Origin: a virus
Reading direction: 5' to 3' (one strand)
DNA: 64,000 nt
Virus record (IMG/VR): IMGVR_UViG_3300043436_001870
Span: 32,001 to 96,000 of that record
A program made the translations under genes and the position numbers. Below the pieces are notes generated by a model. The model was not told the origin of the DNA. It searched no databases and saw only the letters and a list, made by a program, of their open reading frames with translations. The first letter of the stretch is position 1; each line of letters opens with the position of its first letter. Shown here in pieces: positions 9,375 to 46,386 of the stretch.

Positions 9375-9380
9375 TAGCTT

Positions 9381-17627: not shown

Positions 17628-17665
17628 AAAGAGAACCCCGGTGTAATTGCCGGGGTTTTTCTTTT
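17628..17665. terminator. Bidirectional intrinsic terminator between the convergent replication and virion blocks
   Basis: AAAGAGAACCCCGGT-GTAATT-GCCGGGGTTTTTCTTT stem with T-tracts on both strands. Confidence 0.85.
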
Positions 17666-17804
17666 ATCCTTGTCCTCTGTTCAGTTTCTTGTAAAGCTTA
17701 CTAGACTTCAGCTTACTGAACTTGGTTTTTGCCTGCACTCCAGGACGTTTTTTTTTACTTCCTTTTGGTGCATAGTTGTTTTTTGATGTTACTGTCTTTG
17801 CCAT
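17664..17804 (-). CDS. Small basic protein (46 aa) ending RGQG; absent from the ORF track
   Basis: Manual translation MAKTVTSKNNYAPKGSKKKRPGVQAKTKFSKLKSSKLYKKLNRGQG*; starts 4 nt after the 1906-aa gene and ends at the terminator. Confidence 0.8.
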   Translation of the reverse strand: MAKTVTSKNNYAPKGSKKKRPGVQAKTKFSKLKSSKLYKKLNRGQG

Positions 17805-17808
17805 TCTA

Positions 17809-20800
17809 TTATCTCCAATTTTGTGCTTTTACAAAGTTAGTTACTGCCATTGCAGGATCCAAAGATTTACCTGTTGCTCCAAATGATCTAGCTAAATATG
17901 TTAAGGGTTTATACCCTTCAATCGGATTATCAGTGCCTCCTTCCTGCATCCATACATATGGTCCTTCACGTTGATCAAAGTAGGCCTTTGAATCATCAGT
18001 ACCAAAAAGACTATGCATAGCACTTGTAGTTAAGCCTCCTATGATTTTCCCATAGTTGTCAAATGTATTGTGCATTGCAACTGAGTCAAACTTTAACATC
18101 TCTAGATAGTTACCACCAGTTAACCATTGTTGTTGTTCATTTTTTAAACCCATAGCCATCATCAATGCATGGTTAGATAACCAACCCATAAACTTAAAAT
18201 CTGTTTCAGTTTCTGATGTGCCTATGAATGGTAATGGTCCAGACTTCTTACGGAGTTTTTCAAACTTATCTGGATCATCATAATCAAATCCAAATATCAT
18301 TGATATTGATAATACAAGTAATGCTAAGCTTCCTACATCAACTAGTGATTTAATCACAGCAATTTTTTCAGAATCTGTTCTAGATCTATAGTAGTCACTA
18401 CCTTGTCTGATACTTCTTACAAGAAGTCTTAATGACTCAACGTGGTAACCCATTACTGTATCTCCTACTGCTGCATCAAATCTATATTGAGGATCTCTCC
18501 ATGAACCTCTAAACTGGAATCGATTTAAGAACATTCTTACAAACCATCTCTTGAATGCAATGATCCATTTGAATAGTAAGTATCTATCAGCATCAGCATA
18601 GTCAAACTTAGCAAATGAACCGGCCAGGTTATTTGTTACACCCTGTACCTTATTCTTAAATGCTTTGAATTTTTCTCCACCAACTCCCCATTCAGGATCT
18701 ACTCCTTCTTTAATTCTTATCTGACCATCTACAGTTTCCCATGCATCCATGTAGGGAATTCTTTCTGTTCTACCATTTACAGTTCTTTCTACGGTTTGAT
18801 GATACATCATGGCACCAAAGATTGAAACTGTTGAGTTTAATTCTGTCCATTTTCTAAAGCTAGTCATCCAACTCAAACCACCAAGGGCATCCTGTGCAAA
18901 GGATCTTGACATCTGCTCACCAAACTTTTCCTCAAATCTTCCCTGATATGCATCAAAGACCATGATCAATTGTTCATTATGAGTCTTTGGTTTACCTGTA
19001 TATAAGTTCATGCTGAGATCCATTGCTGCATTTGTTGCCCACAATTGACCTTTACCATAGTTAGCAGTATTAAAGTATCTACCTCCTGCTGCTTCAATCA
19101 TAGATTGAATTCTTAATGAGAAGTCATTCTTTAATGCTGATGGAATGTCTAATGCAAAATAACCAAAAGCAGAATACTTCATGATCTGCTGTGCTGTTTT
19201 TGTTACCCATCTTGCATCATTATCATTACCAAGAGCACCCTTTGCCATCACACCTTCAAATTCTCTTTCAATAAAGTTGTCTATAGCTCTTTGTCTTACT
19301 GATTTATCCTTCTGTTCCTGTTGCCAAAGAGCCTTCTGTTTAATATTATTAGCAATGTTTCTTGCTTTTATTTGGCTATTAGATATACCTTTCTGAATGT
19401 TTACATAGTTAGATGGATCATGTAGTACAGACTGTAAAGCTCGGGCCATTGGATTCATCTCAATCAGAGCTCTTTGTTTTTCAGCTGACAACATATATCT
19501 AAGCATACCTCCTACAACATCCAATGATACATCACTTACACCTAAGTCGGACAAACCATGAATAGGAATACCTGCATACTGATCATCATATAAATCTCCA
19601 TCCATAATCATTGATTGCTCTTCATAATTGAAGCCACGATCAAAGTCATCTGATGAACCTTTAAATAAATTTCTGACATTCCTCCACCATCCAGATATAG
19701 GATTTTCTGGTTTCTTATCTGCATTTAGGAAGTTCAGATTTCTTTCATAGTTACTAGTCATGAATCTTGGAATGTCCAAGAATAATTTAGATTGACTAGG
19801 ACTTCCCTCTTGAAATCTTAAATGATATTTAGAGAGAGCAAGAATAGCATCATAAAGAGGCTTATCATTCTTCTTAATATCAAAGAACTGTTGATTGATG
19901 AATCTATTATCAGGAGCATCAAGACGTGGTAAGTGTCTACCATAATTATCTACAGTAGCCAATGTAGGATCACCTTGTTCTAATGCCTCAAGCATTGTTA
20001 CTTCCTTTACAATATACTCATCCTTTACAATACGTTTGGTATACTGCTGTGAAGGAACACCAAGAACTGTTTCAGTTTCACCCTTAGAATTAGTAAATGT
20101 AAATGTCTCATAGTGTTTAGCATTGCTAGGTCTTGTGACATTCCATGCTCTTACTCTTGAGATCTTTGTTGTAGGTGCCCCTGTTTTATCTCGGGTCTGC
20201 TTCATTGTATGGTTTTCATCAAACCATGCCTTTACTTCAGGATATTTTGAGATAACTGTGTTATAGAATGTTGGATCAAGAATTTTATCTGCATTATCTG
20301 GAGTAATATCCTTAGAACCAATTGTATCTATAAGAGTTTTAATAGGAATAAGACTAAATATTGAATTGGCTGTATCAAGATAATAAACTGTAGGAACAGA
20401 CTGTCTCAATTCTGAGAGCTCGTTGTATAGTTCCATGATTCTTTGCTTGTCTGCCTTTGACAAACCATACAAGGATCTCTTATCCATAAGACTACTAAAT
20501 CTTGAAGACTCAAATTGATCTAGTCCTCTTGTAGATTTGATTTCAAATAAATCATTTAATTCCTGCTGCTCTAATTTAGTGAGACCGGTGATACCTATAA
20601 GAGCATCCTTAGCCTTTTCAATCTTCTCCTCAACAGCTTTAATTGCAGCAATGTTGTTTACACTCATTGCTGTACCATCTGGCTGCATATCCTCATCTCT
20701 ATAAGGATTAAGGAGCTGTCTCATTTCTTCATACAACTCATCAATCTTAATAGTAGCAGCAACAGTTGCAGGGAGTTTAGCTTTGATAGCATTGATCTCA

Positions 20801-23529
20801 TCCACTATTCTCTGCTGTTCTTGGTAGTAACTTTCCTTCAGTTGAATTCTTGTATTCTTTGCTATCCACTGAAGTCTGAGTTTATCCTTTACTTGTTGAG
20901 GATAGTTCTTTCTGCTAAGCTCATCCTCATATCTTGTAAGGGCATCTGTAAACAAGGTAGGCATGACCTCTGATGTATAGAAGTCCTTTGAGGCTTCTCT
21001 AAACTCTCTCAGTCTCTGTGCTATTGCAATTTCCTCAGGGCTCTTTAGTTGACCGGCTGCATTAAAATTTGAATGCATTAGTCTATACTCCTTCCATAAT
21101 ACATCAAGACCTTCAGTTACGGCCTTGTTTTCTTCCTCACTGTTTCTATCTACAGTAGTACTAAGGTTTTGAATTCTAGCAAGCAAATCTTTTCTTCTTG
21201 CCTCAGCTATAGGACCAACTGTATCATTATCATCCTTCTTAAATATTTTATATCTTTCATAATACTCTTTTACAAAAGGAGTATGAAAGTATGTTCTCAT
21301 GAAAATATCCTTCTCTAACTTGAGACGGATTGCTTCTGAGTCATCACCTGTTTGCTGAGCTTTTAATACGGCATCTTCAATGTCTTTGTCCATCTTAGCT
21401 GTTGCAGCTCTATAATCCTTGTAAGGATTGATGATGGTTCTCACTTCTTTGTCACTTGTAGTGCCACTTGCATCTCTTGCTGGTCTGCGATCAACAAATG
21501 TAATCTTTGCACCAAATGCTGCTGGATTGCTTTGATTGTATCCTGCTCTATCAAGTATTGGTTTTACATCACTAATAAAAGCATTACCTCTACTCTGTGC
21601 AGTAGTCATGACATCAGTTACTCTGTTCTTTACCCACATTGCAAATCCAAATACAATTGGATCCTGGTTATAAATGTAACCTTCCAAGAATGAATTTAAA
21701 GCACTGGCATCACCAATGTTACCCTGCATCAAATAATCAATTTTCTCTTCAGAGAGATATGCTCCTTTCTTAAAGGAGATTCTCTTAAGCTTCTCATAGT
21801 TCTCAGCAGCTACACCAGTAAGCTTTTCTCCTTTTTCAATTCTTTCTTTAAATGACAAGAATGCTTTTAGCTGATCTGGTTCAAGACCCCAGTAATCTTT
21901 CATACGGAGAAGTCTAGTTTGTTCAGATAAACCAAGTTTGTCTATATCTTGCATCAACTTCTTGTACTTATCATCAATGTACTGCTGCATTGGTTTCAAC
22001 TGAGTTTTAATTAACTCACTTGTACCATTGAAATATACCTTTCTTGTAGAGATCTTAGCTGTATCTATCTGACCCTTGATATTCTCTACCAATTCAAAAA
22101 TAGGATTCTCTGCCTCAATGTATCCATCTTGTTGAGCCTGTGCAAGAGTTTCCTTGAAATTATCAATGAAATTTTCCCATCCATTAAGAACATCATTGAA
22201 GTAGAATACAGTAGCAATATTATCCTTAGAATTTGGATCCTTTACAAGCCCAGTAATAGCACGGTTCATTTTAGTAGCCATACTTAATAGTCTGTCCAAA
22301 CTCTGAACAAATGCTGTAGTGTGACTTTGTGCAGTACGTATCTCCTGCATTATTTTGTCAATCTCCTGGGTTATAAAAGTAGTTGCATCCTGAAATGGTG
22401 TAAGGTTTCTTTTAATTTCCTCAAGGTCATTTCTATTATACTTATCTTTGATAATCTCAGCAGCAGCTGCATAGTCCTTGTTCTTTTGAATAAGACCTAA
22501 GTACTTATTCATTACAACATACATCTCATTAGTAGACTCAATGAGTGCATTCTTTGGTAAGTTATCTAACCCCTGTATTACTTCTTGTAGGTCAGTATAG
22601 TATTTGACTACATCTTCTTCAGACACAGCATCTAGATCAAGAATAAACTTGTCTAGAACAAGCATGTCTGCTAGTTGATCTAATGTGGTGTCTACACTTA
22701 ACTTCTCAATGGTAATCTTTTCCTCCTTGCCAAAAATCTTTCTTAAGATTTGGCGGATTGCATATAGAATATCAGAGATGAACTTATTAAAGGCACTGTC
22801 TTTCTTCTCTACTGCAGCTTCAGTAAGAGCCATTACTAATAGCTCTTCCATAATAACAGGATCGTCCTCTGCTAATTCAGGGTAAGCTTGTTTAGCTGCC
22901 TCAAGAAGTTTTGGACCCATTGATGTCTGAAGTACCTGGCTAACCAGTTTATCAAACAATGGTTTATTAGATAACTGAATTGCTCTAATTACAGGGTGAG
23001 CAAACTCGTGGAATGCAGTCTTCTCTGTAATCAAATTAGGAATTACATATACTCTCCCCTGAAAGAAGAATGCTGGCTGACCTTTCCATGGATTGGCAGA
23101 ACCTGCTGTAATTTCTGCAGCTGTCTCTGCTGTAATAACATCATAAGGAATACTTGTACTCTGACTTAAAGCAAAAAGAAACTGAGTCATTCTTGCTGTT
23201 ACCTTAAGACTACCCTGTGACTTTGCATCAAGAGTAATAGGATTAACAATTGTACTGTATGCTGGATCTGTATTTATTGATGTTTGAAATCCATTATACA
23301 TAGCACCAAGTGGTACATTCTTTAATCCCGGAGCATGAATTGCTAATGTCTCAAGCATGTCATTAAACTGCTCAATTGTAGGAATCTCTATATCCTCACC
23401 AGCTTGTTTGTTCTGGTTAATTGTAAGATATGCACGTTTTACTTCCTGCTCTGCTATTTCAGCAAGACCAATTGATTTAGCATATTCAATAAGGGGATCA
23501 AGCACCCCAGGCATAGGACAAGCTACCAT
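17809..23529 (-). CDS. Giant virion ejection (cargo) protein with N-terminal zincin-like domain
   Basis: 1906 aa; HEFAH...EE motif (~22996-23010); hydrophobic helix near the C-terminus; lies directly downstream of the vRNAP gene. Confidence 0.8.
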   Translation of the reverse strand: MVACPMPGVLDPLIEYAKSIGLAEIAEQEVKRAYLTINQNKQAGEDIEIPTIEQFNDMLETLAIHAPGLKNVPLGAMYNGFQTSINTDPAYSTIVNPITLDAKSQGSLKVTARMTQFLFALSQSTSIPYDVITAETAAEITAGSANPWKGQPAFFFQGRVYVIPNLITEKTAFHEFAHPVIRAIQLSNKPLFDKLVSQVLQTSMGPKLLEAAKQAYPELAEDDPVIMEELLVMALTEAAVEKKDSAFNKFISDILYAIRQILRKIFGKEEKITIEKLSVDTTLDQLADMLVLDKFILDLDAVSEEDVVKYYTDLQEVIQGLDNLPKNALIESTNEMYVVMNKYLGLIQKNKDYAAAAEIIKDKYNRNDLEEIKRNLTPFQDATTFITQEIDKIMQEIRTAQSHTTAFVQSLDRLLSMATKMNRAITGLVKDPNSKDNIATVFYFNDVLNGWENFIDNFKETLAQAQQDGYIEAENPIFELVENIKGQIDTAKISTRKVYFNGTSELIKTQLKPMQQYIDDKYKKLMQDIDKLGLSEQTRLLRMKDYWGLEPDQLKAFLSFKERIEKGEKLTGVAAENYEKLKRISFKKGAYLSEEKIDYLMQGNIGDASALNSFLEGYIYNQDPIVFGFAMWVKNRVTDVMTTAQSRGNAFISDVKPILDRAGYNQSNPAAFGAKITFVDRRPARDASGTTSDKEVRTIINPYKDYRAATAKMDKDIEDAVLKAQQTGDDSEAIRLKLEKDIFMRTYFHTPFVKEYYERYKIFKKDDNDTVGPIAEARRKDLLARIQNLSTTVDRNSEEENKAVTEGLDVLWKEYRLMHSNFNAAGQLKSPEEIAIAQRLREFREASKDFYTSEVMPTLFTDALTRYEDELSRKNYPQQVKDKLRLQWIAKNTRIQLKESYYQEQQRIVDEINAIKAKLPATVAATIKIDELYEEMRQLLNPYRDEDMQPDGTAMSVNNIAAIKAVEEKIEKAKDALIGITGLTKLEQQELNDLFEIKSTRGLDQFESSRFSSLMDKRSLYGLSKADKQRIMELYNELSELRQSVPTVYYLDTANSIFSLIPIKTLIDTIGSKDITPDNADKILDPTFYNTVISKYPEVKAWFDENHTMKQTRDKTGAPTTKISRVRAWNVTRPSNAKHYETFTFTNSKGETETVLGVPSQQYTKRIVKDEYIVKEVTMLEALEQGDPTLATVDNYGRHLPRLDAPDNRFINQQFFDIKKNDKPLYDAILALSKYHLRFQEGSPSQSKLFLDIPRFMTSNYERNLNFLNADKKPENPISGWWRNVRNLFKGSSDDFDRGFNYEEQSMIMDGDLYDDQYAGIPIHGLSDLGVSDVSLDVVGGMLRYMLSAEKQRALIEMNPMARALQSVLHDPSNYVNIQKGISNSQIKARNIANNIKQKALWQQEQKDKSVRQRAIDNFIEREFEGVMAKGALGNDNDARWVTKTAQQIMKYSAFGYFALDIPSALKNDFSLRIQSMIEAAGGRYFNTANYGKGQLWATNAAMDLSMNLYTGKPKTHNEQLIMVFDAYQGRFEEKFGEQMSRSFAQDALGGLSWMTSFRKWTELNSTVSIFGAMMYHQTVERTVNGRTERIPYMDAWETVDGQIRIKEGVDPEWGVGGEKFKAFKNKVQGVTNNLAGSFAKFDYADADRYLLFKWIIAFKRWFVRMFLNRFQFRGSWRDPQYRFDAAVGDTVMGYHVESLRLLVRSIRQGSDYYRSRTDSEKIAVIKSLVDVGSLALLVLSISMIFGFDYDDPDKFEKLRKKSGPLPFIGTSETETDFKFMGWLSNHALMMAMGLKNEQQQWLTGGNYLEMLKFDSVAMHNTFDNYGKIIGGLTTSAMHSLFGTDDSKAYFDQREGPYVWMQEGGTDNPIEGYKPLTYLARSFGATGKSLDPAMAVTNFVKAQNWR

Positions 23530-26500
23530 TTACTTAAAGCATTTATTATTAAACTCAGCAATTTCTTCATCTGTTACAGGAGCACCATATTGTACAACAA
23601 TACGTCCTTCACCAAAAGTCAAGTAGTGAGGATTGATATATCCAAACTTCTCAAATAATTGTTGTGAAAGATACAAAAAGGTTTGGACACCTATGGTTGT
23701 TTTATCAGCATACTGTGCATCAGCAGCTGCCGGGAAGTATTCATTGTAACCAATGAGGTACTGACCATATCCATTAGAATCAAATGCAAGGTTGACACCA
23801 GATTCTTTCTTCTCCATAAGAGCAGCAATGTCTTCATCAATCATTGCTTTGTTCTCTTTAAGAGTAGCATCTGTCCATGCAGCCTTAGCATTGAAGTCCT
23901 TGATCTTACCTTCCTTAGCTTGAGAGACACGTGGTAATGATTTAGTTCTTATACCCAAAGAATTGTCACCCATAGCTCTGTAAACAACATTAGTACCAGC
24001 TGTATCTCTACTTTGTGTTGATGCTTCATTCCTCACAAATATTGTATTAGGATAGTCAACACTTAGCTGTATAGCATTCTGATCTGTTAGTTTATCAAAC
24101 TGATTAACTACCTTTTTGGTTTTTTCATCTGTGCTTGTAAGGAGGTTGAATGTAAGTACACCTGTAGATGTATCCTGCAGCAATTCAAACAAAGTTAAAG
24201 TCTGAATATCACCAACTCTTTTCTTATTTGTAGACTTACTGATTTTACCAGCAACTACTTTTTTAGAACCAAAGTCACCGTTCCATTCAATGTTTTGACC
24301 CCCCGATTGACCATTTCTATTTAGAGCATAAGCAATGTTTGTCGCTCTAGATAAAGCTACATACTTTAATTGGTTTTTTTCTTCTAGGGAAACAGGTGCC
24401 TCAATAATTGACTCTGTATCTACAAACACATTTGTATATGTTGATCCTTGTGACTTATGAATAGTATGAGCATAGCCATAGTCTATTGACTTTTTAAGAA
24501 CTACTCTACCTTTTTTATCCGTAACGTCAAATGGAGTCATTATAGAATCTTTCAATCCACTGTATATTGCAAATGCTTGATTTGCTCTTAGCTCTCCTGA
24601 TTCAACCTGAGCATCTAAAGATTTTTGATATTCAACCAGTTTCTGAGCAAGAAGATTAATAATTTCTTGAGAGGTGCTTCTACTTAATACAAACTTCTCA
24701 TATATATCACCATCACCATCTATTTCTTGTAGTTGTATTGTATATCCAGTTAGTTCAAGACCTCCTAGACCATTAAATGTCATTTTATTTTCTGCTTGAA
24801 CGGATAGTACTTCATAATCAACAGAGTTATTTATTTGAAATGTTCCACCTTTTTTATAGCCTACATTTTCATATGCCATAATAATGTCACCTATAACATA
24901 TTCTAGAATCTTAGACGTATCTACTTCTTTATCAAACCAGATTTTGTTTCTTACAACCTGGTTAAAATCCTCTACCCTTTCATTAGAATGTGACAATATT
25001 CTTACAAAGTTTCTATTGTTCTTAAAGTTTTCAGACTTAAAAGCAGCAATAGCTTGTCTTGTGAAATCAACTCCAGTCTTTGTTGTAACAATGCCTTGAT
25101 TACCAGAAAGTTCTGTTTTAGCATCTATAGCTGATGTATCCTTTTTCTGATTATTACGAATGTCTTCAAGTATAGGACCTAATGGATTTGATCCAGCTTG
25201 TCTTTCTACTTTAGTCAGTTCATACTTATAGGGATGATCAAATGCTTTAGATCTCTTAGAGGTAGTCTTATCTTCCTCTACAGGATTAAGCTGTGCAGGA
25301 TCTCCAATGAATAAGATCTTTGTTTTACCTTCTCCAGCATAATCAGACAGAGCATCAAATAACTCATCACCTACAAGTGAAGCCTCATCTACAATTACTA
25401 CATCAGGTTTATAAAGAGATTCTTTTTGTACAGTTAACTTAATTTTACGAAGGTCTGTCTTAGTAAGCTTAGATGAGCTACCAAGACCTAGAAGCTTCTG
25501 TAATGTCACAGCTCCTGTCTTTGCTAGTTTGGCAATTACCTTCTTAGCTTTATGAGTAGGTGCTGTTACATTAATAGAGAGACCTCTTTGTCTCATGTAC
25601 TCAAGGGCAATCTTTGTGATACTTGATTTACCTGTACCAGCATAACCCATCAGAGTAAATACATCCTGGTTAGGATTATCAATGAAGTCAGCAATCTGCT
25701 GCAATGCTTCAAGCTGTTGATCATTAGGTGTAAATGGTATATCAAGCTTATCAAGATTTAGATTAATACCATTTATTGTAACAATACGACCAGGAGTCTC
25801 TTCCTCTGTTTCAAGTGGTGTTTCTAATTCAGATACAGTGTCATCTGTAATTCTAACAATATCTGAAGGTATTCCCTCAGGATTAAATGCGTAGTTCTTA
25901 AGCTTGTTACTTACATTCTTATTGTCAATTCTATACTGATTATTAAACAATGATGTATACTCATCAAGAACAGTATTAGGTCTAGCCTTTAGATCAGTAA
26001 GAAACTTATCATAGGATGACTTAAGAAGACCATAGAACATATCATTAGGAACAGCTCTGATTAAGCTGAACGCAGATGTAGTATCAATACCTGTCTGAAG
26101 TAATGCATATAAACCAAATCTTGCAAATACCTTTGAGATTCTTTCATTCTCAATTGGATCTTCTACCTTAATTACATTAGGGTCAGCTAGTTCTTCAATC
26201 TGCTGAGTATATAGATCAAGTTCTTCAGGTGTAGGTCTGTCACCAGTAAACTTAAGGTTGTTAATAGTAACCTCTTGTTTCTTACCATCATTGGTTACAA
26301 ATGATGATCCTCCTGTACTAATCTCAAGTCTATCAAGAACCTCATACTTGTCTAAAAGTGATGGGTTCTCCTTACCAATTTCAAGTACTTGCTTAGCATA
26401 AGATCTACCACCAAAGAACATGTGTCCATGGTAGTTGAGATTATCCAAAGCCATATCTCTTAGAGTAGCCTCATAAGCTTTAAATGCTGGCTTTGAATCA

Positions 26501-32500: not shown

Positions 32501-35172
32501 GCTGTGTTGTATGCTTCATTTACCTTGTCAACATACTCAGAGAAAAGAGCATCGGTGCTATCTCCTAAAAGCTTGCTGATCATACTATTCATTACATAAG
32601 GAGAATCAGCAGCAGTTGACTCAATTGTCTTAGTCTTATTTAGTACATCAAAGTTAGCATTGGCTTGATCAAAAGTATAACCAGTTAGATTACCTACACG
32701 TAGTTTTTCATACAGCTCTCCAATGACTTTGTTGTCCCTAGGTGAAAGCTGTACTTCATCAACAGTTGTTCCTCCAAACAAGTTCTTAAGTAAATCAAGT
32801 AACCATTGGAAGAACTTATTACGTACAGGCTTGCCTTCTACAGGCTTACCTTTACCCAACATAAATTCACGGAAATCCTCTGCAAGATACTCCTCTAGCT
32901 CTAGTAGAGTAGCATCAGCAAATGATACTGTTCTACCCATATATGACATGAATGTGCCGGTGCTCTTACGTGCCTCAGCATACATCTCATTTCTTTGGGC
33001 CTCAGTCATGAATGTCTGAGTAAACCCATGCCATGCTTCATGGTATAAATCAGTAAAGTCAGAACCTTGGAAGAGAGTAATACCAGATAATGTCCAAGTT
33101 GCAACAGAACCTCTTGTATTAGAGTTTACTGCATTGAACATTACTTCATAAGGAATAACCTTAGCTAAAGGACTTCTCTCATACCATGCTTTAGCAGCAT
33201 AGATCTGAGCAACAGTTGCTTTAACTGATTGTTGCTTATCAAGTTTGTTGAGACCTTTGGCCTTACGGATAGTCTCTTCAAGCTTACCATTCTTTATGGC
33301 ATTACCAATTACATTAGAATCAGCAGAACTTCTACCTCTTGGTTGTCTAGCCTTTGCCTTTGTAACTGCTTCTTGTGCTGCAGCTTCATTGACTGGATTA
33401 GAAACAACTGGTGCAGTGCTTACAGGAGCTTGTGGTTGTTGTACTGTTACTGGATTCTTTAATACTGTTTTACCAACCTCAGCTTTTACTGGACTGATTG
33501 TAAAGTATCCATTGTACTCACGTAGTTTACCATTAGAGTCAAAGAATCCTCTGATCTCTTTTGAAACTCTATCTAAATATTCTATTTGGTTCTCAGTAAA
33601 GTAATCTAAAACAATGGTACCATCCTGCTCAGACAAATTGAAGTTTGTGAAACTATTTTCATTAAAGTTCTTAGTAAGTATACTGTATTCTCTTGGAAAT
33701 TTTTTTTTATCTGAAGAAATAGCATTTCTTAATTCTTGAAAAGAAAGAGCATCTGTTAATTTTTGAACAGCAGAGGAATCATTTAAGTCTATGTCTTTTC
33801 CATTATGAGTAATGTATAACTCAGACAACTTATAGTCAAAGTCTATCTTAAGACCTTTTCTTTCTTGTCCACCAAAGAATGAATTAATTAACTCATACTT
33901 TTCTTTTAGGGAAACTTTTACTCTTTTACCTTCAACATTTTTATATACGTCAGTGGTAAGAAGTTTAACAAGTTTATCTATATCAGTTTTGTCAGCAGGT
34001 TTTGTAAACACTTGTACTGACATATTACTTGCTCCAACCTTAAGTTGAATTGATTGTTTCTTATCTTTTGTAACAAAATCTAATTTTAAAGGAACATTAC
34101 CAAAATTGGCCTGTGAAACTTTGATACTAACTCCTTTTGCATCAGTATAAATACCAAGACGTGCATCTGTAATAGAATAAACAATTGTATTACCTGGATT
34201 CTGATTCAAATATGCATAGCTTTTACTCAATGCATCAAATTGTGCAGTAAGTAATGCTTCAGCCTGCTCAATAGATATCTCACCTTCAGAATTATCTGAT
34301 ATTTCTTTTGGTGACTGTGTATACTCATTCTTTTGCCAGTTGTACTTACCATTGTCAAGTTTTCCTGGAATAGGTCTTGAACCATAATAAATTATACGTC
34401 CTTTATCTGATACATTAAACTGTTCATTAAAGTATAAAGGTGTACCATTGACATCTGTAATTACAAATGCATACGGATTTTTATTTGCAGGCTGAGGGTA
34501 TATCTGACCTTCAGGGATTCTCTTAATAGGTACAAGACTAATATGAATACCGCCAGTTACTCCAGGATACTCTATACCAGTTTCTCCTGGTTTAGGAGTA
34601 AGACCTTTTGCAGCCAAGAACTTAATAAAGTCTGTGTAATAAGCTAATGCTGCATCCTCTCCTAGACTGGCATTGCCTGGATCAGACAATGTATTAATTG
34701 TTGTAGCAAACGGATTAATAGGTCTAGGTCTTGTAAAGGGTACTCCTGCCTTGCTAATCTGAGCACTTACTAAAGTTCTTTGTTCCTCAAAATTGATTTC
34801 AGAAATGATTTCTCCAAGATCTTTAGGAGGCTCATTGAGTCCTAGATAAGCTACTGTATTGTCAAGTCCTTTTTCTGGATTTGATAATTCATCTCTCAAG
34901 TCAAAAACCTCATCAAGACTTAATCCTTTTTTACGAATTTCCTTGCTTTTTGGTTGAGCAATCATCTCTGGAAGAACAGCAGCTGTTAACATAGCATACT
35001 CAACAGCCAAGTTTTTATTTCCTGATTTAGCTAACACTCTGTCATAAATACTTTTTAGGTAGTTATTCAGATTAAAAGTTTTTGCAGGATCATTAATAAT
35101 CACTAATAAATCCTTTGCAATTTTTTTACGAAGGACCTGTATCTGCTCTGGGGTTCTTGTACAATTGATCAT
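23530..35172 (-). CDS. Virion-packaged single-chain double-psi beta-barrel RNA polymerase fused to a zincin domain and a Dda/RecD-like SF1B helicase
   Basis: RIP.QG and GGDFDIDK catalytic motif (DFDID at 28441-28455, as in phi14:2 gp66); HEAWH (33028-33042); helicase motifs GYAGTGKS, DEAS, GDPAQL, HKSQGSTY, YVALSRA. Confidence 0.92.
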   Translation of the reverse strand: MINCTRTPEQIQVLRKKIAKDLLVIINDPAKTFNLNNYLKSIYDRVLAKSGNKNLAVEYAMLTAAVLPEMIAQPKSKEIRKKGLSLDEVFDLRDELSNPEKGLDNTVAYLGLNEPPKDLGEIISEINFEEQRTLVSAQISKAGVPFTRPRPINPFATTINTLSDPGNASLGEDAALAYYTDFIKFLAAKGLTPKPGETGIEYPGVTGGIHISLVPIKRIPEGQIYPQPANKNPYAFVITDVNGTPLYFNEQFNVSDKGRIIYYGSRPIPGKLDNGKYNWQKNEYTQSPKEISDNSEGEISIEQAEALLTAQFDALSKSYAYLNQNPGNTIVYSITDARLGIYTDAKGVSIKVSQANFGNVPLKLDFVTKDKKQSIQLKVGASNMSVQVFTKPADKTDIDKLVKLLTTDVYKNVEGKRVKVSLKEKYELINSFFGGQERKGLKIDFDYKLSELYITHNGKDIDLNDSSAVQKLTDALSFQELRNAISSDKKKFPREYSILTKNFNENSFTNFNLSEQDGTIVLDYFTENQIEYLDRVSKEIRGFFDSNGKLREYNGYFTISPVKAEVGKTVLKNPVTVQQPQAPVSTAPVVSNPVNEAAAQEAVTKAKARQPRGRSSADSNVIGNAIKNGKLEETIRKAKGLNKLDKQQSVKATVAQIYAAKAWYERSPLAKVIPYEVMFNAVNSNTRGSVATWTLSGITLFQGSDFTDLYHEAWHGFTQTFMTEAQRNEMYAEARKSTGTFMSYMGRTVSFADATLLELEEYLAEDFREFMLGKGKPVEGKPVRNKFFQWLLDLLKNLFGGTTVDEVQLSPRDNKVIGELYEKLRVGNLTGYTFDQANANFDVLNKTKTIESTAADSPYVMNSMISKLLGDSTDALFSEYVDKVNEAYNTAAATTTLIKDKQSLSVGYDYVREQMTAQLEYLLEERSKMDSNIEDTSDTDFAIDTIAAGLANFGDPYNLDNPVGLVKFHMENSTLMKSTIQAIEEEASITDRNVFEKRAGNEVPLANLAKPDVLFTIRSLKAYEKDGSVKLNILGLPDLNDFKKSWNRILNITEGANTDNEVYEKLKLAAEDYPIIKELMSKIGSPQNLDEASVNLWTDFTKILTMPRINLRMLELKQTDRFIQDVQGGFGRKETSYIVSPVEATGEFRKVGRRWNDNFAIADEGEYITKDIYGNNILNVNAVYRQFRNTKFTKDNIDDIYKFFDSIGIVLEDGKSAKADAYKSGLANYGKRTMDYLQAIYAYNKSKDGLLNPIKIQAPSDIYKNYKSDSAYKLPKKIEQVSVRQVLGGGSGIYNGLQKFQLKWSDDFADTTVNNANNQSQQERSLRSTISNQIGKWNRAKSITELTQEGVPNANDLSMSHLSPSRNPFVKSTIIYKSTFDENGVRRTYKDSSSGQQVPVSIQLNNMAGFMNQYTNTRNIMERSGIDASSADETTKLVGDFLMLTLYGATEATRHADKATTLLYKLLNGKLHYIDLKNFKTAGGKTEFADTLIGYLSSEFERIQKLKNGDPSATVTVGDKTYGEVAQDFVIFNGILKPETITNLKEQLATSPEVQTSEQFLKFVDGNLDLKNLLQTDITDYLTEQRQKNAKMLQESGILSNTGVINSLLEKLETGDSERSPKDVINGLTAERREKMITALIDGYTANDWIHKYEFSVMFYGDPALYKNVDDFFKRNAGIAATGDFARTGPAMTAYIDSKFAQVSYAATRGKTRASFGNTMNSAVMQDVVSKSIYYDTYLEAALKIEKDRLKKVNASPETVAKAEASIKKVFSKYTEMTEADGQGWISFDAYRALLMSLNKWTPNQEFLYNKIVKGEEVAMDDVLNFFPVKKMQYWGPLMGTGLPATAFHKYSLMPLIPSVIKNTPLENLHNKMVDQDIDYALMQSGSKVSTITKDGKADKFYNDNQRTTEGYAFDAPTYQFTKNTVFLDYFKDQLEVAEYYKKKVTFSSQLRKLIEQGLFENKVPVDYKPNIADKNERYRLWNAENDKLSTKFARYASRFEKILDSLVEIEKQKIRDQVGSTKKSLIEFIKSELSGPGKKLSEHEVDFLGVDEATDTLLRDLDLSPSADVIERALVNIAQKRILNQKLTGESLVQVSGVGFEQGRLRTATEEEIGRYGGTNGLPFYNPKLDKKGNVISVSAMKIKISLQGPFKNLLNHADVVKYSNENGVTRLDALNHLIKQEWWLNQGDNRAMVTTAAVRIPVQGLNSMEVMEVFEFLPEESGNIVILPAEIVAKSGGDFDIDKMFTFFPTIKTKREVNEEDYALISDILGFGIDAAIVNEIKELVQLGEDLDISTLTEEEKDILRAIDTYYEDKTSAVMNFGDDKAGLENQLLGVIKDILLDPFNFSSLITPNTTDTMEPLGETIAKETKGAGTQKAKGLSEIFEVGRNLYKHQSNNVGKDVLGIIAVVNTFQSIFGRSGLVLTKNRIITQTQRGSVEHPQRLKFAHNKIGDSITLSANYDAEQLNKISDIISQLINGSVDVAKKAWIFDVQGNKELINSLLFMTMAGVPVEDAVYFLSQPIIRDFVKEQRKFKSQYSRAIGYGDVGNFFRNEARDRILFADKGDNKYGFNWLVADFQEKSDKDSTSKYKNKKPSKRLVFEEIDRLVEGIGEFKKADLAGRLNKSNDFDNYDRSVFLHFLEISEMSSQITQLTQNLNFDRTKTETLLDARLRLAKIDDLANGIEPESIQNIIENSPVSAYKIQDFILDLFSDLFPLRDSKEVNRKIASLTDKDISGMPPISAYKKMTGLDADEYIERFRSDLINYVFQSNYYRFNQTQGVYRGFEVQVPIEGVTYLRAGARVKNGILYASKSDILTTFQQELYSKDSMWENEVAPVESSVFALYDAKTAEALYTKFVYEREVLRSFEKNSPENLKNSSIYKTHLNTFKNDSKPAFKAYEATLRDMALDNLNYHGHMFFGGRSYAKQVLEIGKENPSLLDKYEVLDRLEISTGGSSFVTNDGKKQEVTINNLKFTGDRPTPEELDLYTQQIEELADPNVIKVEDPIENERISKVFARFGLYALLQTGIDTTSAFSLIRAVPNDMFYGLLKSSYDKFLTDLKARPNTVLDEYTSLFNNQYRIDNKNVSNKLKNYAFNPEGIPSDIVRITDDTVSELETPLETEEETPGRIVTINGINLNLDKLDIPFTPNDQQLEALQQIADFIDNPNQDVFTLMGYAGTGKSSITKIALEYMRQRGLSINVTAPTHKAKKVIAKLAKTGAVTLQKLLGLGSSSKLTKTDLRKIKLTVQKESLYKPDVVIVDEASLVGDELFDALSDYAGEGKTKILFIGDPAQLNPVEEDKTTSKRSKAFDHPYKYELTKVERQAGSNPLGPILEDIRNNQKKDTSAIDAKTELSGNQGIVTTKTGVDFTRQAIAAFKSENFKNNRNFVRILSHSNERVEDFNQVVRNKIWFDKEVDTSKILEYVIGDIIMAYENVGYKKGGTFQINNSVDYEVLSVQAENKMTFNGLGGLELTGYTIQLQEIDGDGDIYEKFVLSRSTSQEIINLLAQKLVEYQKSLDAQVESGELRANQAFAIYSGLKDSIMTPFDVTDKKGRVVLKKSIDYGYAHTIHKSQGSTYTNVFVDTESIIEAPVSLEEKNQLKYVALSRATNIAYALNRNGQSGGQNIEWNGDFGSKKVVAGKISKSTNKKRVGDIQTLTLFELLQDTSTGVLTFNLLTSTDEKTKKVVNQFDKLTDQNAIQLSVDYPNTIFVRNEASTQSRDTAGTNVVYRAMGDNSLGIRTKSLPRVSQAKEGKIKDFNAKAAWTDATLKENKAMIDEDIAALMEKKESGVNLAFDSNGYGQYLIGYNEYFPAAADAQYADKTTIGVQTFLYLSQQLFEKFGYINPHYLTFGEGRIVVQYGAPVTDEEIAEFNNKCFK

Positions 35173-38100
35173 TACTTACAATCTAATGAGTTATCAAATT
35201 CATCATTTACTTCGTCTTCTGAGATGTTTTCTACATCATCAAAAGCCTGACTACTTAGTTTACTTGCCTCTTCTGAATCAGTTGCTGTTTCAGCAGACTG
35301 ATTTGCAAGATCTTTTTCTTCTGTAGTAAACTCAACAGGACTCTCAACTTTATCAATCTCACCAGTTTTTACATCTTTAATCTTAATGTACTCAACTTGT
35401 TCCCTTAGTTGTTGTTCTGTTAATATGACATCCTCTCCAGCAAGATTAAGATTTCTTACAACTACTGTTTTATTATTGTCATTCTTAGCTACAATAATGG
35501 CATTACCATCAGCACTATATATTGATTTGTCTTTCATAACAAGTATTGTCATAACATTAACTGAGTCAAAGGTAATACCTGATGGCTCCAATTGATTACG
35601 TCTATTTGCAAGAAGTTTCTCATAAGTTTCATAATCCAAGTTCTCAGCTTGCAGAACTTGATTATTTACTTTTGCCACAATATCATCTAGCTGTTCTTGA
35701 GTAGCTTCTGCAATTTGTTCTCTGATAGTTTTTATATCAGTTGGAGTTGCTTCCTCCTCTGCTGCAAGTTCTTCAGCAGTTGGTATGCTGATTGGACCTG
35801 GTGTTGGTTGACCTGCTGGTACTGGAGCTGGTGCTGCAGGACCTGGTTCTGTAAAGTTATTGCTAGTATTATACTCATCAACAATGTTATCAATTATAGG
35901 ATCTGTTGAAGTAGCAAACCATGTAGCAAATTCTTTATTAGCAACACCTGGTTTATTAGTTGCAATAGAATACTGACCAAGCAATGTAGCCATTAAATCT
36001 GGATAGTCCTTCTTAAGAGAATCAAGACTTGTACCTCTTGTTACAGCTGGTTTAGACACAATACCTATTCCACTAGCTGGTGCTGTTCCTGCTGCAGTTG
36101 TGGTTCCTGCCGGAGCAGTTACACCCTTTCCTGCAAGTTTGTTAGATACAATACCTAGTACCTCAGTAAGAGCTGTCTCATCTATTGATATAGCCTGACC
36201 AAATTGTTTTTTAAAGAAACTAACCAATGCCTTTACAAACTCCTGCCATAGATTACGGTTAGTATTCTTGTAGGGAATTATTGCAAGGACTTCTTGGCCG
36301 GCCTGACTAGCAAAGGCTTCAGCAACAAATGCTTCTTGACTAGTAAGCATGCGAGTAACATAGTTACCATACTTCTGTCTCATATCAGGATTATCTTCAT
36401 AGTACTTCTTAAATGCATCCATGACATTCTGAATAGCAGCCTTAAACCCTGGATCAGATTGATTATCAGAAACAATCATCTGGGTTAATGGATGTATCAT
36501 TAGATATGTCAAAGTAGATGTATAGAACTTACCATCAACTTGGGCTGAATAATCCTTAGTAGCAAATCTAGGATCAATAGTAATACCTGTTTCTTTAGTG
36601 TAACTAAATCCAGAAGGACTTGTCAATGATATTACCATTTTCTTCTCAGGATCAACTGCCGTCATAAGATTTTGAATCATCTTTCTAGACGGAACAGATC
36701 CTATTCTTTTCTTGAGAATATATTTAAGAACATCAACAATAGAAATAGTATATGTATCTTGACCAGGTTGTAAACCTAATCCAGTCAATATATCATTTAA
36801 TGAAGGAGCCTTATCAGCTTCAATCATATCATCAATTAAATATCCTCCCTTAGCCATAGCTTCAGCAATAACTTTACCCTTTAGAGTAAAGCCTTGTTCT
36901 GATTCAAACTCAGACAAGAAATTTAGAATTTCTTTGTAAAGATTACTTGTAGGTTCTACTTCTTCAAACTCATTAGTCTTTGGGTTTTGTTTGTAGAATG
37001 CTGAAGGAACTCTATCTCCTTTCATCAATGCTTCAATCTCATCCGGAGAAAAGAATACATTGAACTTTAAAAACAGTTTTTGAATAAGTTCATTTACTCC
37101 TATACGAGTCTTGAACTCATCCAATGACTTCTGCATCTTGGTTTTAGCAATTTCTCTAGCATCCTTTGCAGCTTGTGTAAACTGCTTAGCTGCCATTGAA
37201 TAATTGTATGGATCATTCAAGAATGTCACAGCATTCATTGCATCACTCAAATTCTCTGAAAGCTCAGCATAGTCAATAACTTGTAATACCAGTTTATCTA
37301 GTTCTGGACTCTTGGCATCAATACCAGAAATAGCAGAAAGGTAGTCTCTTACTCTAGTTTCAAGCTCTTGTCTTCTTTGTTCTAAACCGGCCTCAATTTC
37401 ATTACCCTCAAAGTCTAATGGTAATTGACCCTGAGGACCACCAGTAACCTTTAGTTTTTTAGCTTTGATGCTGACTGATTTAGAAACTTTCTTACCAGAT
37501 GCATCTGTGTATTCTATGGTAACTTTATTGGATGTCTTCTTTGTTACAGTACCTGTAACCTTAGCACCGTTCTTAAAAGTATACTCCACAGTGCTGCCCT
37601 GCTGTACAGTAAATTGTGTCTTGGTATCTTCCTTTACTTCATCTCTTAGTGCAGCATTTGCTACAGATTTCTTGGCTTGACTATATTCTTTTCTGTAATT
37701 AGCAAAGTCTTCCTTAAAGTTTCTAAGAAGAGCTGCTTGTTTCTTTCTTTCCTCACCTAGTTTCTTCTGTGCTTCATCACCCTGTAAATATCCAGTAGCC
37801 TCCCTTTCTAGAAGATTAATCTGAGTATCAATCATATCCTCACCAAATGCACTTTTGCTGTCACTTAGAAATAAAGATGTAAGTTGCATAGACTGAGCTG
37901 CTCCTAACTTTGTTCCAGCTGCATCATTAAATATGCTACTTAATCTTTTAGCTGCTTGCTGATATGTATAGTCATTATAAATTGCTAGGGTACGAGCTTC
38001 TTCAAATCCATACCAGTCTTCATATTCATCTGGGTTACCTGACTTAGGATTAAATGGATTTCTAATAGTACTATACTTCTCATGATTAGCCTTGATCTGA

Positions 38101-40280
38101 TTTACTTTATTCAAAACAGAATCAAGTCTACCTCTCATATCATTATTAAACTCATCAGCTTTACCAGAATTTTGGTCATAACCAAAAGCCTGAAGTAACT
38201 CATCATCACTCATTTGTTGGAATGATTCAATCTGATCAGTAAACATGTCAATGTAACCCTGATTCAGAAGAGTCTTAACATGTTTGAATATTGCATCATT
38301 TACTAAATCTTTTTCTTCTCTAACATCTCCAGCAGCTTCTGCTAAACTCATAAGATTAGCAAAGTCCTTTTGGTTTTGAGTATTTTCATAGATAGCATTA
38401 AAAAACTTTTTAGGATCAGCTTGGATTTCATTAGCTGTTTTTATTACTCTATCCTGAGTAGCTTTTCTTTGTGCAATCTTATCATCATAGGCTTTTTTGT
38501 CTTTGACTTTTTCATATACATCTTTACCAGCCTGTACTCCATATTGAAAAACTAGACTCTGAGGTACTTGAACCATACCTCCCATCAAGAAACCAGATAA
38601 GAATGTTTCAGCACCTTGAGCAGTAAATTGATCACCAATACCGGCTCCAAGCTTATCTAAGAATAATGCTGTACCTGCTCTTTCAGGAGATGCAAATGTC
38701 TCAAGATAATAGTCAGTCATTGTCTTTGCAATAGACTCTTGATATGATTCTTGTAAACCTTCAGCAAGGTTAGCAGACATATATCTTATACCATTCTTAG
38801 CAAAATTCTGTGGTCTAAACTGGTTTATAATTCTTTTACCATTTTTCTTTGTAAACCAGTCTCTAGGATTTGCAGGATCAACAAACCCCTCATATTTTTT
38901 CTTGGTTTTCTTGCCGTAGTTTATAACAAGCTTACCTAATGAGGAATCACCATTTTCTCTAAAAGCCCTGAAACCTTTTAATGCCTTATCAAATACTAGC
39001 TTATTAGATACAAGGATCATTGGAAAGTTAGCCTGAGTAGTTGATACCCCAGCAAGTTTAGCTTGCTGCATAATCTTGTTAGCATCCTCACCTTCAGGTG
39101 CTCTACCATTTTCCTCTAGGTATTTATCATAGAGTTCCATAAAGACATCATTCTGAACCATACCACCTTCAAGCCTTGATTCAGCAAGAGAAGTATTCAT
39201 CATCTGAAGATCTCTAAAAAAAGAACCAAATGTCTTAGAGTGTCTTGCCCAGTCACTCATTGCATCAAAGCCATTAGCTCCTGTTCTGATATTCTTAACT
39301 GTTTCTGCTGTTTGAGTAAATGGATTAACAAAATCTCCAAGACCTTTCCAAAATTTTCTAGCATTATTTACATCTGACAAGCTGTTGGCTGCAGTTGCTG
39401 TAGAAGCAAGATCAGGTGCCTGTTGAGCAACTGTCTTACCTGCCTGAATCACATCCTCTACATTTTCAAGTGTCTTACCAGCTTTCATGAATTTTGCAAG
39501 ATTAGAACCTGTTTTTGCAGCAGCAAGTCCACCTAATGCACCACCTGTTAAAGCCGTAGCTCCCCATAGAGCTACTTCTTCAAGAATTATATTACTCATT
39601 ACACCAAAGGTGTAAGCAGAGTTTCCATATAGATTTACAGCAAATCCACCTACACCACCTCTAGAAGAGTTAGCAATGGACATCATTCTATTCATATCTC
39701 TTGCATACTTTGTGTCACCACTTGCATTGAAAGAGAATAGATCATCCCAGTTATTAAATGTCTGAGATAAACCAAGACCTGCTAATGACATCCATTGTGT
39801 ACTTGCTCTAGACCAATCATCTGTCCAAGTACTATTAGCATTGTAGATAGCTTCATTATCTACATAAGGGTTCCATCCTAGTTTTTTATACTGAGGATGG
39901 TTATAATATCTATCAAAGTTATTTTTATTAGGACCAGCACCAAAACCAATCTGTCTTACTCTATCTGCTGCAGTACCGCTTGTAGGGATCCCACCAGGGC
40001 TCATAACAGTAGAGAGCATGTCTTTTACATAACTCTGGGTACCGTCAATCTGAGGATTAGTTTTCTCTGGAGTAAATGTAGCAAGACCTTTATTATTACC
40101 GGCTGCTATCTCAGCATTTTGTCTTAATGGAGTTGCACGGTTCATGAACACATTAGATGGACCAGTACCAAGTATCTTATTTACACTTTGCTCCATACCA
40201 GGAAGTATCTGATCAAACTGTTTCTTAGTTTGATCAAGTAAAGCCAAGTATTGATCAACAGGATTTATTGCTTCTGCCAT
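35172..40280 (-). CDS. Giant virion ejection protein with hydrophobic Gly/Ala segments and a degenerate zincin-like domain
   Basis: 1702 aa, TAATG-coupled to the vRNAP gene; 'VALWGATALTGGALGGLAAA'; 'EGLQESYQ'; 'YLMIH...AFVAEAF'. Confidence 0.8.
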   Translation of the reverse strand: MAEAINPVDQYLALLDQTKKQFDQILPGMEQSVNKILGTGPSNVFMNRATPLRQNAEIAAGNNKGLATFTPEKTNPQIDGTQSYVKDMLSTVMSPGGIPTSGTAADRVRQIGFGAGPNKNNFDRYYNHPQYKKLGWNPYVDNEAIYNANSTWTDDWSRASTQWMSLAGLGLSQTFNNWDDLFSFNASGDTKYARDMNRMMSIANSSRGGVGGFAVNLYGNSAYTFGVMSNIILEEVALWGATALTGGALGGLAAAKTGSNLAKFMKAGKTLENVEDVIQAGKTVAQQAPDLASTATAANSLSDVNNARKFWKGLGDFVNPFTQTAETVKNIRTGANGFDAMSDWARHSKTFGSFFRDLQMMNTSLAESRLEGGMVQNDVFMELYDKYLEENGRAPEGEDANKIMQQAKLAGVSTTQANFPMILVSNKLVFDKALKGFRAFRENGDSSLGKLVINYGKKTKKKYEGFVDPANPRDWFTKKNGKRIINQFRPQNFAKNGIRYMSANLAEGLQESYQESIAKTMTDYYLETFASPERAGTALFLDKLGAGIGDQFTAQGAETFLSGFLMGGMVQVPQSLVFQYGVQAGKDVYEKVKDKKAYDDKIAQRKATQDRVIKTANEIQADPKKFFNAIYENTQNQKDFANLMSLAEAAGDVREEKDLVNDAIFKHVKTLLNQGYIDMFTDQIESFQQMSDDELLQAFGYDQNSGKADEFNNDMRGRLDSVLNKVNQIKANHEKYSTIRNPFNPKSGNPDEYEDWYGFEEARTLAIYNDYTYQQAAKRLSSIFNDAAGTKLGAAQSMQLTSLFLSDSKSAFGEDMIDTQINLLEREATGYLQGDEAQKKLGEERKKQAALLRNFKEDFANYRKEYSQAKKSVANAALRDEVKEDTKTQFTVQQGSTVEYTFKNGAKVTGTVTKKTSNKVTIEYTDASGKKVSKSVSIKAKKLKVTGGPQGQLPLDFEGNEIEAGLEQRRQELETRVRDYLSAISGIDAKSPELDKLVLQVIDYAELSENLSDAMNAVTFLNDPYNYSMAAKQFTQAAKDAREIAKTKMQKSLDEFKTRIGVNELIQKLFLKFNVFFSPDEIEALMKGDRVPSAFYKQNPKTNEFEEVEPTSNLYKEILNFLSEFESEQGFTLKGKVIAEAMAKGGYLIDDMIEADKAPSLNDILTGLGLQPGQDTYTISIVDVLKYILKKRIGSVPSRKMIQNLMTAVDPEKKMVISLTSPSGFSYTKETGITIDPRFATKDYSAQVDGKFYTSTLTYLMIHPLTQMIVSDNQSDPGFKAAIQNVMDAFKKYYEDNPDMRQKYGNYVTRMLTSQEAFVAEAFASQAGQEVLAIIPYKNTNRNLWQEFVKALVSFFKKQFGQAISIDETALTEVLGIVSNKLAGKGVTAPAGTTTAAGTAPASGIGIVSKPAVTRGTSLDSLKKDYPDLMATLLGQYSIATNKPGVANKEFATWFATSTDPIIDNIVDEYNTSNNFTEPGPAAPAPVPAGQPTPGPISIPTAEELAAEEEATPTDIKTIREQIAEATQEQLDDIVAKVNNQVLQAENLDYETYEKLLANRRNQLEPSGITFDSVNVMTILVMKDKSIYSADGNAIIVAKNDNNKTVVVRNLNLAGEDVILTEQQLREQVEYIKIKDVKTGEIDKVESPVEFTTEEKDLANQSAETATDSEEASKLSSQAFDDVENISEDEVNDEFDNSLDCK

Positions 40281-43536: not shown

Positions 43537-43566
43537 GTGTTATAGTAAAAATACAAAAAAAATCTG

Positions 43567-43594
43567 TAAAGTTTAATAAACTTTTAAAGTTTAC
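43567..43594. promoter_or_regulatory. Triple alternating inverted repeat (AAAGTTTA/TAAACTTT), operator-like
   Basis: TAAAGTTTA-A-TAAACTTT-T-AAAGTTTA in the only sizeable intergenic gap among the cargo genes. Confidence 0.55.
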
Positions 43595-46374: not shown

Positions 46375-46386
46375 AGTGTAAAGGTA

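Follow-up and report, generated by a model that had tools for sequence, protein, structure and literature searches.

Paired terminal cysteines as a probable head-to-tail link between three giant proteins of a crAss-like phage

We analyzed a 64,000-nucleotide (nt) stretch of viral DNA, positions 32,001 to 96,000 of IMG/VR record IMGVR_UViG_3300043436_001870 (the whole stretch is called the window), in which three consecutive genes encode giant proteins that we refer to as A, B, and C. Their 7,488 residues contain only four cysteines (A1701, B4, B3878, and C4), all of which lie at termini that face each other in gene order. We consider it likely that A, B, and C form the RNA polymerase (RNAP) cargo block of a crAss-like phage and that they are tethered head to tail where the C-terminal tail of one protein docks on the N-terminal head of the next, most likely through interchain disulfides that would make one covalent A-B-C chain of ~841 kDa. 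The main features are given below in window numbering; the genes for A, B, and C are all on the minus strand.

35172 to 40280, minus strand: protein A, 1702 amino acids (aa), first link of the proposed chain; sole Cys at residue 1701, none at the N-terminus.
35175 to 35324, minus strand: C-terminal tail of A; helices 1653-1698 after a flexible linker, then LDCK, with the Cys1701 codon at 35178-35180.
23530 to 35172, minus strand: protein B, 3880 aa, middle link, virion RNA polymerase (vRNAP); only Cys4 and Cys3878.
34843 to 35163, minus strand: head of B; a short stub with Cys4 (35161-35163), then a helical domain at residues 8-110.
28441 to 28455, minus strand: RNAP catalytic motif DFDID of B, residues 2240-2244, inside GGDFDIDK.
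24328 to 25725, minus strand: Dda/RecD-like superfamily 1 (SF1) helicase domain within B, residues 3150-3615.
23533 to 23550, minus strand: C-terminal end of B, ...FNNKCFK, with the Cys3878 codon at 23539-23541.
17809 to 23529, minus strand: protein C, 1906 aa, last link; sole Cys at residue 4 (23518-23520), none at the C-terminus.

The census agrees with what had been read from the DNA letters by the original prediction, namely, four cysteines in 7,488 residues, all at facing termini: the open reading frames (ORFs) and codon coordinates are reproduced exactly, and the outer ends of the chain (the N-terminus of A and the C-terminus of C) indeed lack cysteine. The single-chain mass proposed at the time, ~830 kDa, needs a correction, since the three proteins sum to 841 kDa. 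A ends in ...LDCK, B begins with MINC and ends in ...NKCFK, and C begins with MVAC. In the replication ORFs on the plus strand of the same window, cysteine makes up 1.01% of residues (56 in 5,547). Against this background, the binomial probability of four or fewer cysteines in 7,488 residues is 1.5e-27, and the probability that four cysteines land one in each 5-residue window at the facing termini is 4.8e-12. The genes are tightly coupled, with a 1-nt overlap (TAATG) at the A/B junction and a TAA directly abutting the ATG at the B/C junction, and both junctions read AAG TAA (A)TG with a TGT two or three codons downstream, as might be expected if the pattern were a nucleotide-signal by-product of coupled stop-start junctions. 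Such an origin, or plain chance, is nevertheless hardly credible given the two P values above and given that, in relatives, the pattern survives genes on opposite strands, gaps of up to 1.3 kb, and varied positions and codons.

To follow the cysteines beyond this genome, we drew homologs of the three proteins from a set of 5.8 billion proteins, with identity down to ~24%.

A family: no N-terminal Cys; C-terminal Cys in 100/102 (last 1-6 residues); 2 internal Cys in 184,298 residues.
B family: N-terminal Cys in 43/61; C-terminal Cys in 59/61 (last 1-9 residues); 34 internal Cys in 252,000 residues.
C family: N-terminal Cys in 55/55 (residue 3-5); no C-terminal Cys; 14 internal Cys in 115,554 residues.

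The B-family members without an N-terminal cysteine were, among those checked, either A-B fusions or sequences that start inside B. C1701 is an invariant column of the A alignment, as are C4 and C3878 in the B alignment; cysteine was invariant in every alignment made and was the sole invariant column in those of the heads and tails. In the head and tail alignments, no other residue near either terminal cysteine is conserved, be it His, Asp, Glu, or a second Cys. Few features of A, B, and C are conserved as strictly as the terminal cysteine pattern, which is kept order-wide.

When the B alignment was used to scan IMG/VR, 74 loci were recovered (72 unique), and ORFs in them were called from the first ATG. 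Cysteine is present on both facing termini at all 124 of the 124 junctions in the unique loci, the outer chain ends always lack it, and the ORFs upstream of the chain have no terminal cysteine; internal cysteines in these chains number 30 in 492,643 residues. The N-terminal cysteine is preceded by 2-5 residues (129 cases), and the C-terminal one is followed by 0-8 (124 cases). Cysteine positions and flanking codons differ among loci, and the number of terminal cysteines tracks the length of the chain (2, 4, and 6 in chains of 2, 3, and 4 proteins). Several junctions with 354-1314 nt between the genes still hold the pair, and in crAss001 gene 47 is on the strand opposite to genes 50 and 49. Because the pair persists on opposite strands and across gaps, the feature acts at the protein level and is not a by-product of coupled stop-start codons. 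Two further explanations of cysteines at termini were considered and rejected: a split intein or trans-splicing, since the distances of the cysteines from the termini (0-8 and 2-5 residues) do not match the boundaries of intein-sized domains, and a lipoprotein-type N-terminal cysteine, since no signal peptide precedes it.

Gene fusions and splits provide natural experiments on the same question. None of 11 fusions (L053, L074, L078, L079, P0208, P0210, P0211, and P0215-P0218) has an N-terminal cysteine, and 8 of the 11 fusion proteins examined have no internal cysteine at all. One of them, P0208 (5609 aa), combines residues 115-852 of A with the helicase of B and has a single cysteine near its C-terminus. 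BLASTP and hidden Markov models of B heads and A tails mostly did not locate the junction in divergent A-B fusions and gave only rough positions; the junction of L053, at a rough position near residue 800, is an E/K/Q/P-rich linker without cysteine. Splits show the converse. C is a single protein of 2352 aa in locus L034 and of 2444 aa in L043, versus 583 + 1852 aa in L026 and 396 + 2232 aa in L049, respectively; the termini created by splitting carry facing cysteines (...NSCKL facing MSKC... and ...VDCG facing MAC...), and the unsplit C proteins of L034 and L043 have none at the equivalent site. The junction cysteines track fusions, splits, and facing termini, which gives good support for a pairwise head-to-tail link in gene order. 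It had been predicted that cysteines would occur only at facing termini, would be lost where genes are fused, and would be gained where they are split; this holds in the fusions, in the splits, and at the 124 junctions.

Homology places this block among known virion proteins. The genome is a 113-kb IMG/VR record, ~95% complete, whose closest named relatives are Crassvirales; near-identical DNA was not found in the phage collection searched. B matches the phi14:2 virion RNA polymerase gp66 (PDB 6vr4) at an E value of 5e-22 and has BLASTP matches to phi14:2 gp66 and crAss001 gp50. The catalytic motif of two-barrel RNAPs, DFDxD, is present as GGDFDIDK at residue 2240, and the pattern [GS]DFD[IV]DK is kept across the B family. 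C is weakly homologous by BLASTP to crAss001 gp49 (E 1e-5) and phi14:2 gp65 (E 2.5e-5). A has no BLASTP match to gp67 of phi14:2 or gp47 of crAss001 at E 1e-3; therefore, its equivalence to them is positional only, although it shares their position, size, and cysteine pattern. Neither A nor C has a match in PHROGs or Pfam. Virion structural genes sit upstream of the A-B-C block, and the plus strand holds the replication module; from homology and from this position after the structural genes, we infer that the block is probably carried in the virion here as well, as are its counterparts in phi14:2 and crAss001 (PMC10172136 for crAss001).

The order gp67-gp66-gp65 in phi14:2 and gp47-gp50-gp49 in crAss001 is that of A-B-C, with the same cysteine pattern. 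In phi14:2, gp67 (1797 aa) ends in its sole cysteine, gp66 (2180 aa) contains two, Cys3 and Cys2179, and gp65 (1421 aa) a single one, Cys3. In crAss001, gp47 has only Cys2339 of 2341 residues, gp50 has Cys5, Cys1334, and Cys2404 of 2412, and gp49 has only Cys5. In p-crAssphage, gp45 ends in ...FSCM, and the B-C fusion gp44 begins with MSC and has no C-terminal cysteine; its Cys2220 (..FNCPSY..) lies near the junction predicted from phi14:2 offsets (~2221), which is suggestive only of a possible relic of a C head. The Suoliviridae cr50_1 and cr118_1 have a protein of A-B length (4774 and 4946 aa) with a C-terminal but no N-terminal cysteine, followed by a C protein with Cys3. The crAss001 atlas describes gp47, gp49, and gp50 as capsid cargo, leaves them structurally unresolved, and reports disulfides in the tail without mentioning the cargo cysteines (PMC10172136). 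The preprint on the phi14:2 polymerase is silent on cysteine and states that some phages fuse the three proteins; gp66 of phi14:2 is translocated into the host according to the literature.

The purge of internal cysteines is looser in human gut crassviruses than in the IMG/VR loci (~0.006% of chain residues). There are 7 internal cysteines in gp44 and 2 in gp45 of p-crAssphage, and 2 and 4 in the A-B proteins of cr50_1 and cr118_1; the terminal cysteines are kept. Anoxic habitats or hosts without periplasmic oxidases may account for this.

The termini themselves appear to come in matched sets. The tail of the middle protein in L026 is 77% identical to the B tail of L076 over the last 26 residues, and both precede the same C head, MSKCRLDIQ.... 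In L054, a middle protein of 304 aa (8594-9508, plus strand) has a C head of the L030 type and a B tail of the L036 type, with a cysteine at each end; its upstream neighbor has a B tail of the L030 type and its downstream neighbor a C head of the L036 type. Local alignment scores for these matches are 160, 96, 103, and 68, compared with 28 for two cross-controls. These matches indicate that tails and heads travel as cognate pairs, and the 304-aa protein looks, from its sequence, like an adapter between a B and a C of different connector types. Four small middle proteins had no match in Pfam. Specific docking of this kind would also keep B, which carries a head and a tail on one protein, from self-polymerizing.

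We then turned to structure prediction for the A-B junction. AlphaFold2 (AF2) models, built on alignments derived from the loci, place Cys4 of B on a stub ahead of helix 8-27 in a helical domain spanning residues 8-110, with a predicted local distance difference test (pLDDT) score of ~90 over residues 11-110. In the model of A, a flexible linker leads from a folded domain to three helices at the C-terminal end (1653-1698), and LDCK with Cys1701 follows. A multimer check of the terminal pairs had been proposed together with the pattern, and here it favors docking of the A tail on the B head: the complex of B 1-300 and A 1553-1702 scores 0.79, compared with 0.00 for the best of three controls; of solved complexes, 51 of 78 attain the mark for this score, as do 2 of 108 mismatched pairs. 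In the complex runs, contact agreement was at least 33% and partner pLDDT at least 47. The confidently predicted interface joins B 1-20 and 45-104 with A 1649-1702 and includes both cysteines. The predicted helices are antiparallel (B10 with A1698 and B20 with A1688), an arrangement in which Cys4 and Cys1701 would share one end of the bundle.

An experimental precedent for such a junction exists in cyanophage A4. Its cryo-electron microscopy structure shows the C-terminal helix of gp27 in a cleft of gp26, held by a Cys1715-Cys5 disulfide (PMC12002296); the pre-ejectosome that contains this bond is an ordered pentameric ring mounted on the portal (PMC12002296; PNAS 2025). We checked the sequences of Anabaena phage A-4L, and gp27 (1717 aa) and gp26 (1114 aa; PDB 9k3a) are otherwise free of cysteine. 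In A4 as in the window, large internal or ejection proteins are encoded by consecutive genes, the sole cysteine of the upstream protein is near the C-terminus (three residues from it in gp27), and that of the downstream protein is near the N-terminus (residue 5 in gp26). The helix-in-partner geometry has been seen in A4, whereas here it is a prediction. The two systems also differ in that a single link joins two proteins in the pentameric ring of A4, and the block described here has two links (1-3 in relatives), which include the vRNAP; nor does the A4 paper give a rule across phages, a tracking of fusions and fissions, or matched connectors (PMC12002296). By analogy with A4, a disulfide is the most likely chemistry for the crassvirus junctions, and the tail disulfides of crAss001 virions can be counted in its support (PMC10172136). 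As for the original prediction that the proteins are joined head to tail in gene order, what stands is the pairwise link, supported by the fusions and splits, the complete agreement among junctions, the predicted docking, and the A4 analog.

The mechanism that we favor would work as follows. Each junction would be a two-part connector, in which the upstream protein docks with its helical C-terminal tail on the helical head at the N-terminus of the next. Docking would juxtapose a cysteine 0-8 residues from the C-terminus with one 2-5 residues after the initiator Met, and the two would most likely bond as an interchain disulfide. A, B, and C linked in this way would behave like the single fused polyprotein of some relatives, and the other cysteines would have been purged so that alternative crosslinks could not form. 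The purpose might be co-packaging at 1:1:1 and hand-over-hand ejection of the unfolded proteins via the tail. Conceivably, the chain could also thread through the tail as one strand, persist in the periplasm, and be released by reduction in the cytoplasm.

Several considerations weigh against this mechanism. No crassvirus experiment demonstrates the bond, a non-reducing analysis of virions was not found in the literature searched, and published virion gels and mass spectrometry give separate proteins. The cytoplasm in which virions assemble is reducing, and gut anaerobes are common among the hosts; a phage thioredoxin (PF00085) was not found in the 113-kb genome. A profile for the Erv1 oxidase (PF04777) matched nowhere, including in the controls, and so carries no weight either way. 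The complex prediction used the window's own sequences without alignments, its model pLDDT is low (47-52), and, because natural A-B fusions exist, the docking pass may reflect memory of the split genes and not be independent evidence. A4 serves as an experimental analog and not as a homolog, because no relationship in sequence or fold was found: BLASTP comparison of A4 gp26-gp29 with A, B, and C gave nothing significant (E above 0.1 for gp26 and gp27), profiles of the B and C heads did not find A4 gp26 (9k3a) among PDB sequences, and fold searches with the B head (Foldseek and VIA-align) did not list 9k3a. The best VIA-align row for the B head was YopN/TyeA, with a Z score of 5.4, which is under the noise level for helical domains. 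Finally, p-crAssphage (L005, BK010471) gp47 (28140-30713, minus strand, 857 aa) has a single penultimate cysteine (...KQSCR) with no evident N-terminal-Cys partner, since gp46 and gp45 start without cysteine.

The reducing environment of assembly bears on a different chemistry, in which the facing cysteines would jointly bind a metal (Zn, Fe, or Cu) at the tail-head interface as a reversible clasp. Such a clasp could form in a reducing cytoplasm, often that of anaerobes, and the comparative data require a pairwise interaction and no particular chemistry. We find it improbable all the same: cysteine is the sole invariant terminal residue, with no conserved extra ligands nearby, and the solved analog, A4, shows a disulfide (PMC12002296). 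A single four-Cys metal cluster formed by all the termini is rejected outright by the relatives with 2, 4, or 6 terminal cysteines.

A real disulfide could also have no part in the order of ejection and merely staple a static complex of capsid cargo or a pre-ejectosome. The A4 bond, in its ordered ring on the portal, is consistent with this (PMC12002296), and the computed results presented here do not bear on ejection. Yet a static staple would not need cysteines so near the termini (2-5 and 0-8 residues), as a link that passes through a channel would; the very short overhangs past each cysteine fit a link passing a narrow channel. Moreover, in relatives one fused polypeptide can stand in for the chain. 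On balance, we regard the staple as rather unlikely, though it deserves to be taken seriously. Carried further, the head-to-tail disulfide tether suggests a programmable protein train, in which matched connectors, each locked by a single disulfide, would take the place of peptide bonds and order two to four giant proteins for one-strand threading through the tail, cargo modules (small adapters like the 304-aa protein of L054 among them) could be inserted, split, or swapped, and reduction in the cytoplasm would free or activate the RNA polymerase. This extension is speculative, and we hold it only as a tentative possibility.

Cysteine avoidance in ejected proteins is known from other short-tailed phages. 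In N4 gp50 and DEV gp71-gp73, cysteine is suppressed, which has been attributed to avoiding disulfide formation in the periplasm (PMC11445570), and T7 gp15 and gp16 have no cysteine. The block thus resembles the Schitoviridae (N4 gp50 and DEV gp71-gp73) and T7 gp15/gp16 in having giant, almost cysteine-free virion proteins ejected through a short tail. In contrast, the proteins of those phages have no conserved terminal cysteines and are unchained, and the N4-type vRNAP is a single polypeptide; the purge in crassviruses spares exactly the facing termini. Namely, A, B, and C lack internal cysteines as that group does but, unlike the cysteine-free N4 gp50, hold four conserved terminal ones. T7 (L083) gp14 has a single Cys2 (MC...) and no facing C-terminal cysteine, so there is no chain in T7. 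Together with the lone C-terminal cysteine of p-crAssphage gp47, this Cys2 is all that can be cited, and nothing more specific, for the idea that terminal cysteines are free thiols with separate tasks after ejection (redox sensing, acylation, or attachment to host or portal). Free thiols are very improbable, given that outer termini never have a cysteine and that the pairs are lost in fusions, present in splits, and matched at every one of the junctions.

One bond of this type, in A4, and cysteine-free ejection proteins, in N4 and T7, are already known. Our full-text literature searches returned no paper on terminal-Cys linkage in Crassvirales, and a multilink chain that includes the polymerase, the fusion/fission rule, and matched connectors are undescribed in the literature searched. 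Few viruses in the human gut are as abundant as the crAss-like phages, and how several proteins of 150-450 kDa are packed and delivered through a short tail is the problem addressed here. If the proposal is true, a covalent link of this kind, conserved and running head to tail, would account for equal stoichiometry and for delivery in a fixed order, and also for the occurrence of the block as a single polyprotein in some phages and as two to four separate genes in others. The sequence rule is also of practical use in annotating genomes of uncultured phages, where proteins whose only cysteines are at facing termini show which proteins belong to the ejected chain and in what order.

Other features of these proteins deserve mention. 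B is a vRNAP fused in frame to a complete Dda/RecD-like SF1 helicase (Pfam AAA_30, E 1.5e-25; phrog_325, E 6e-79; PDB Dda 3upu), and it differs from phi14:2 gp66 and crAss001 gp50 in carrying this helicase and in being much larger (3880 aa). An SF1 helicase is common to many B homologs, and the giant proteins of cr50_1 and cr118_1 are annotated as a whole as "DNA helicase." Zincin-type HExxH motifs are found in C (HEFAH at residue 174) and also in B (HEAWH at residue 711), where YHE[AS][WF]H[GA]F ranks with one other stretch as the best conserved in the family.

The block has the following neighbors upstream of A.

40285 to 48921, minus strand: three Cys-free ORFs (1083, 927, and 844 aa), presumed cargo, outside the Cys-linked chain.

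Counting gave zero cysteines in all three, as had appeared from the start. Next upstream, a 2473-aa ORF (48923-56344, minus strand) had no match in a PHROG search and has four cysteines in two close pairs, 458/467 and 2268/2278. On the other side of the block, a very basic, Cys-free ORF of 46 aa (MAKTVTSKNNYAPKGSKKKRPG...; window positions 17664-17804, minus strand) begins 4 nt past the stop codon of C.

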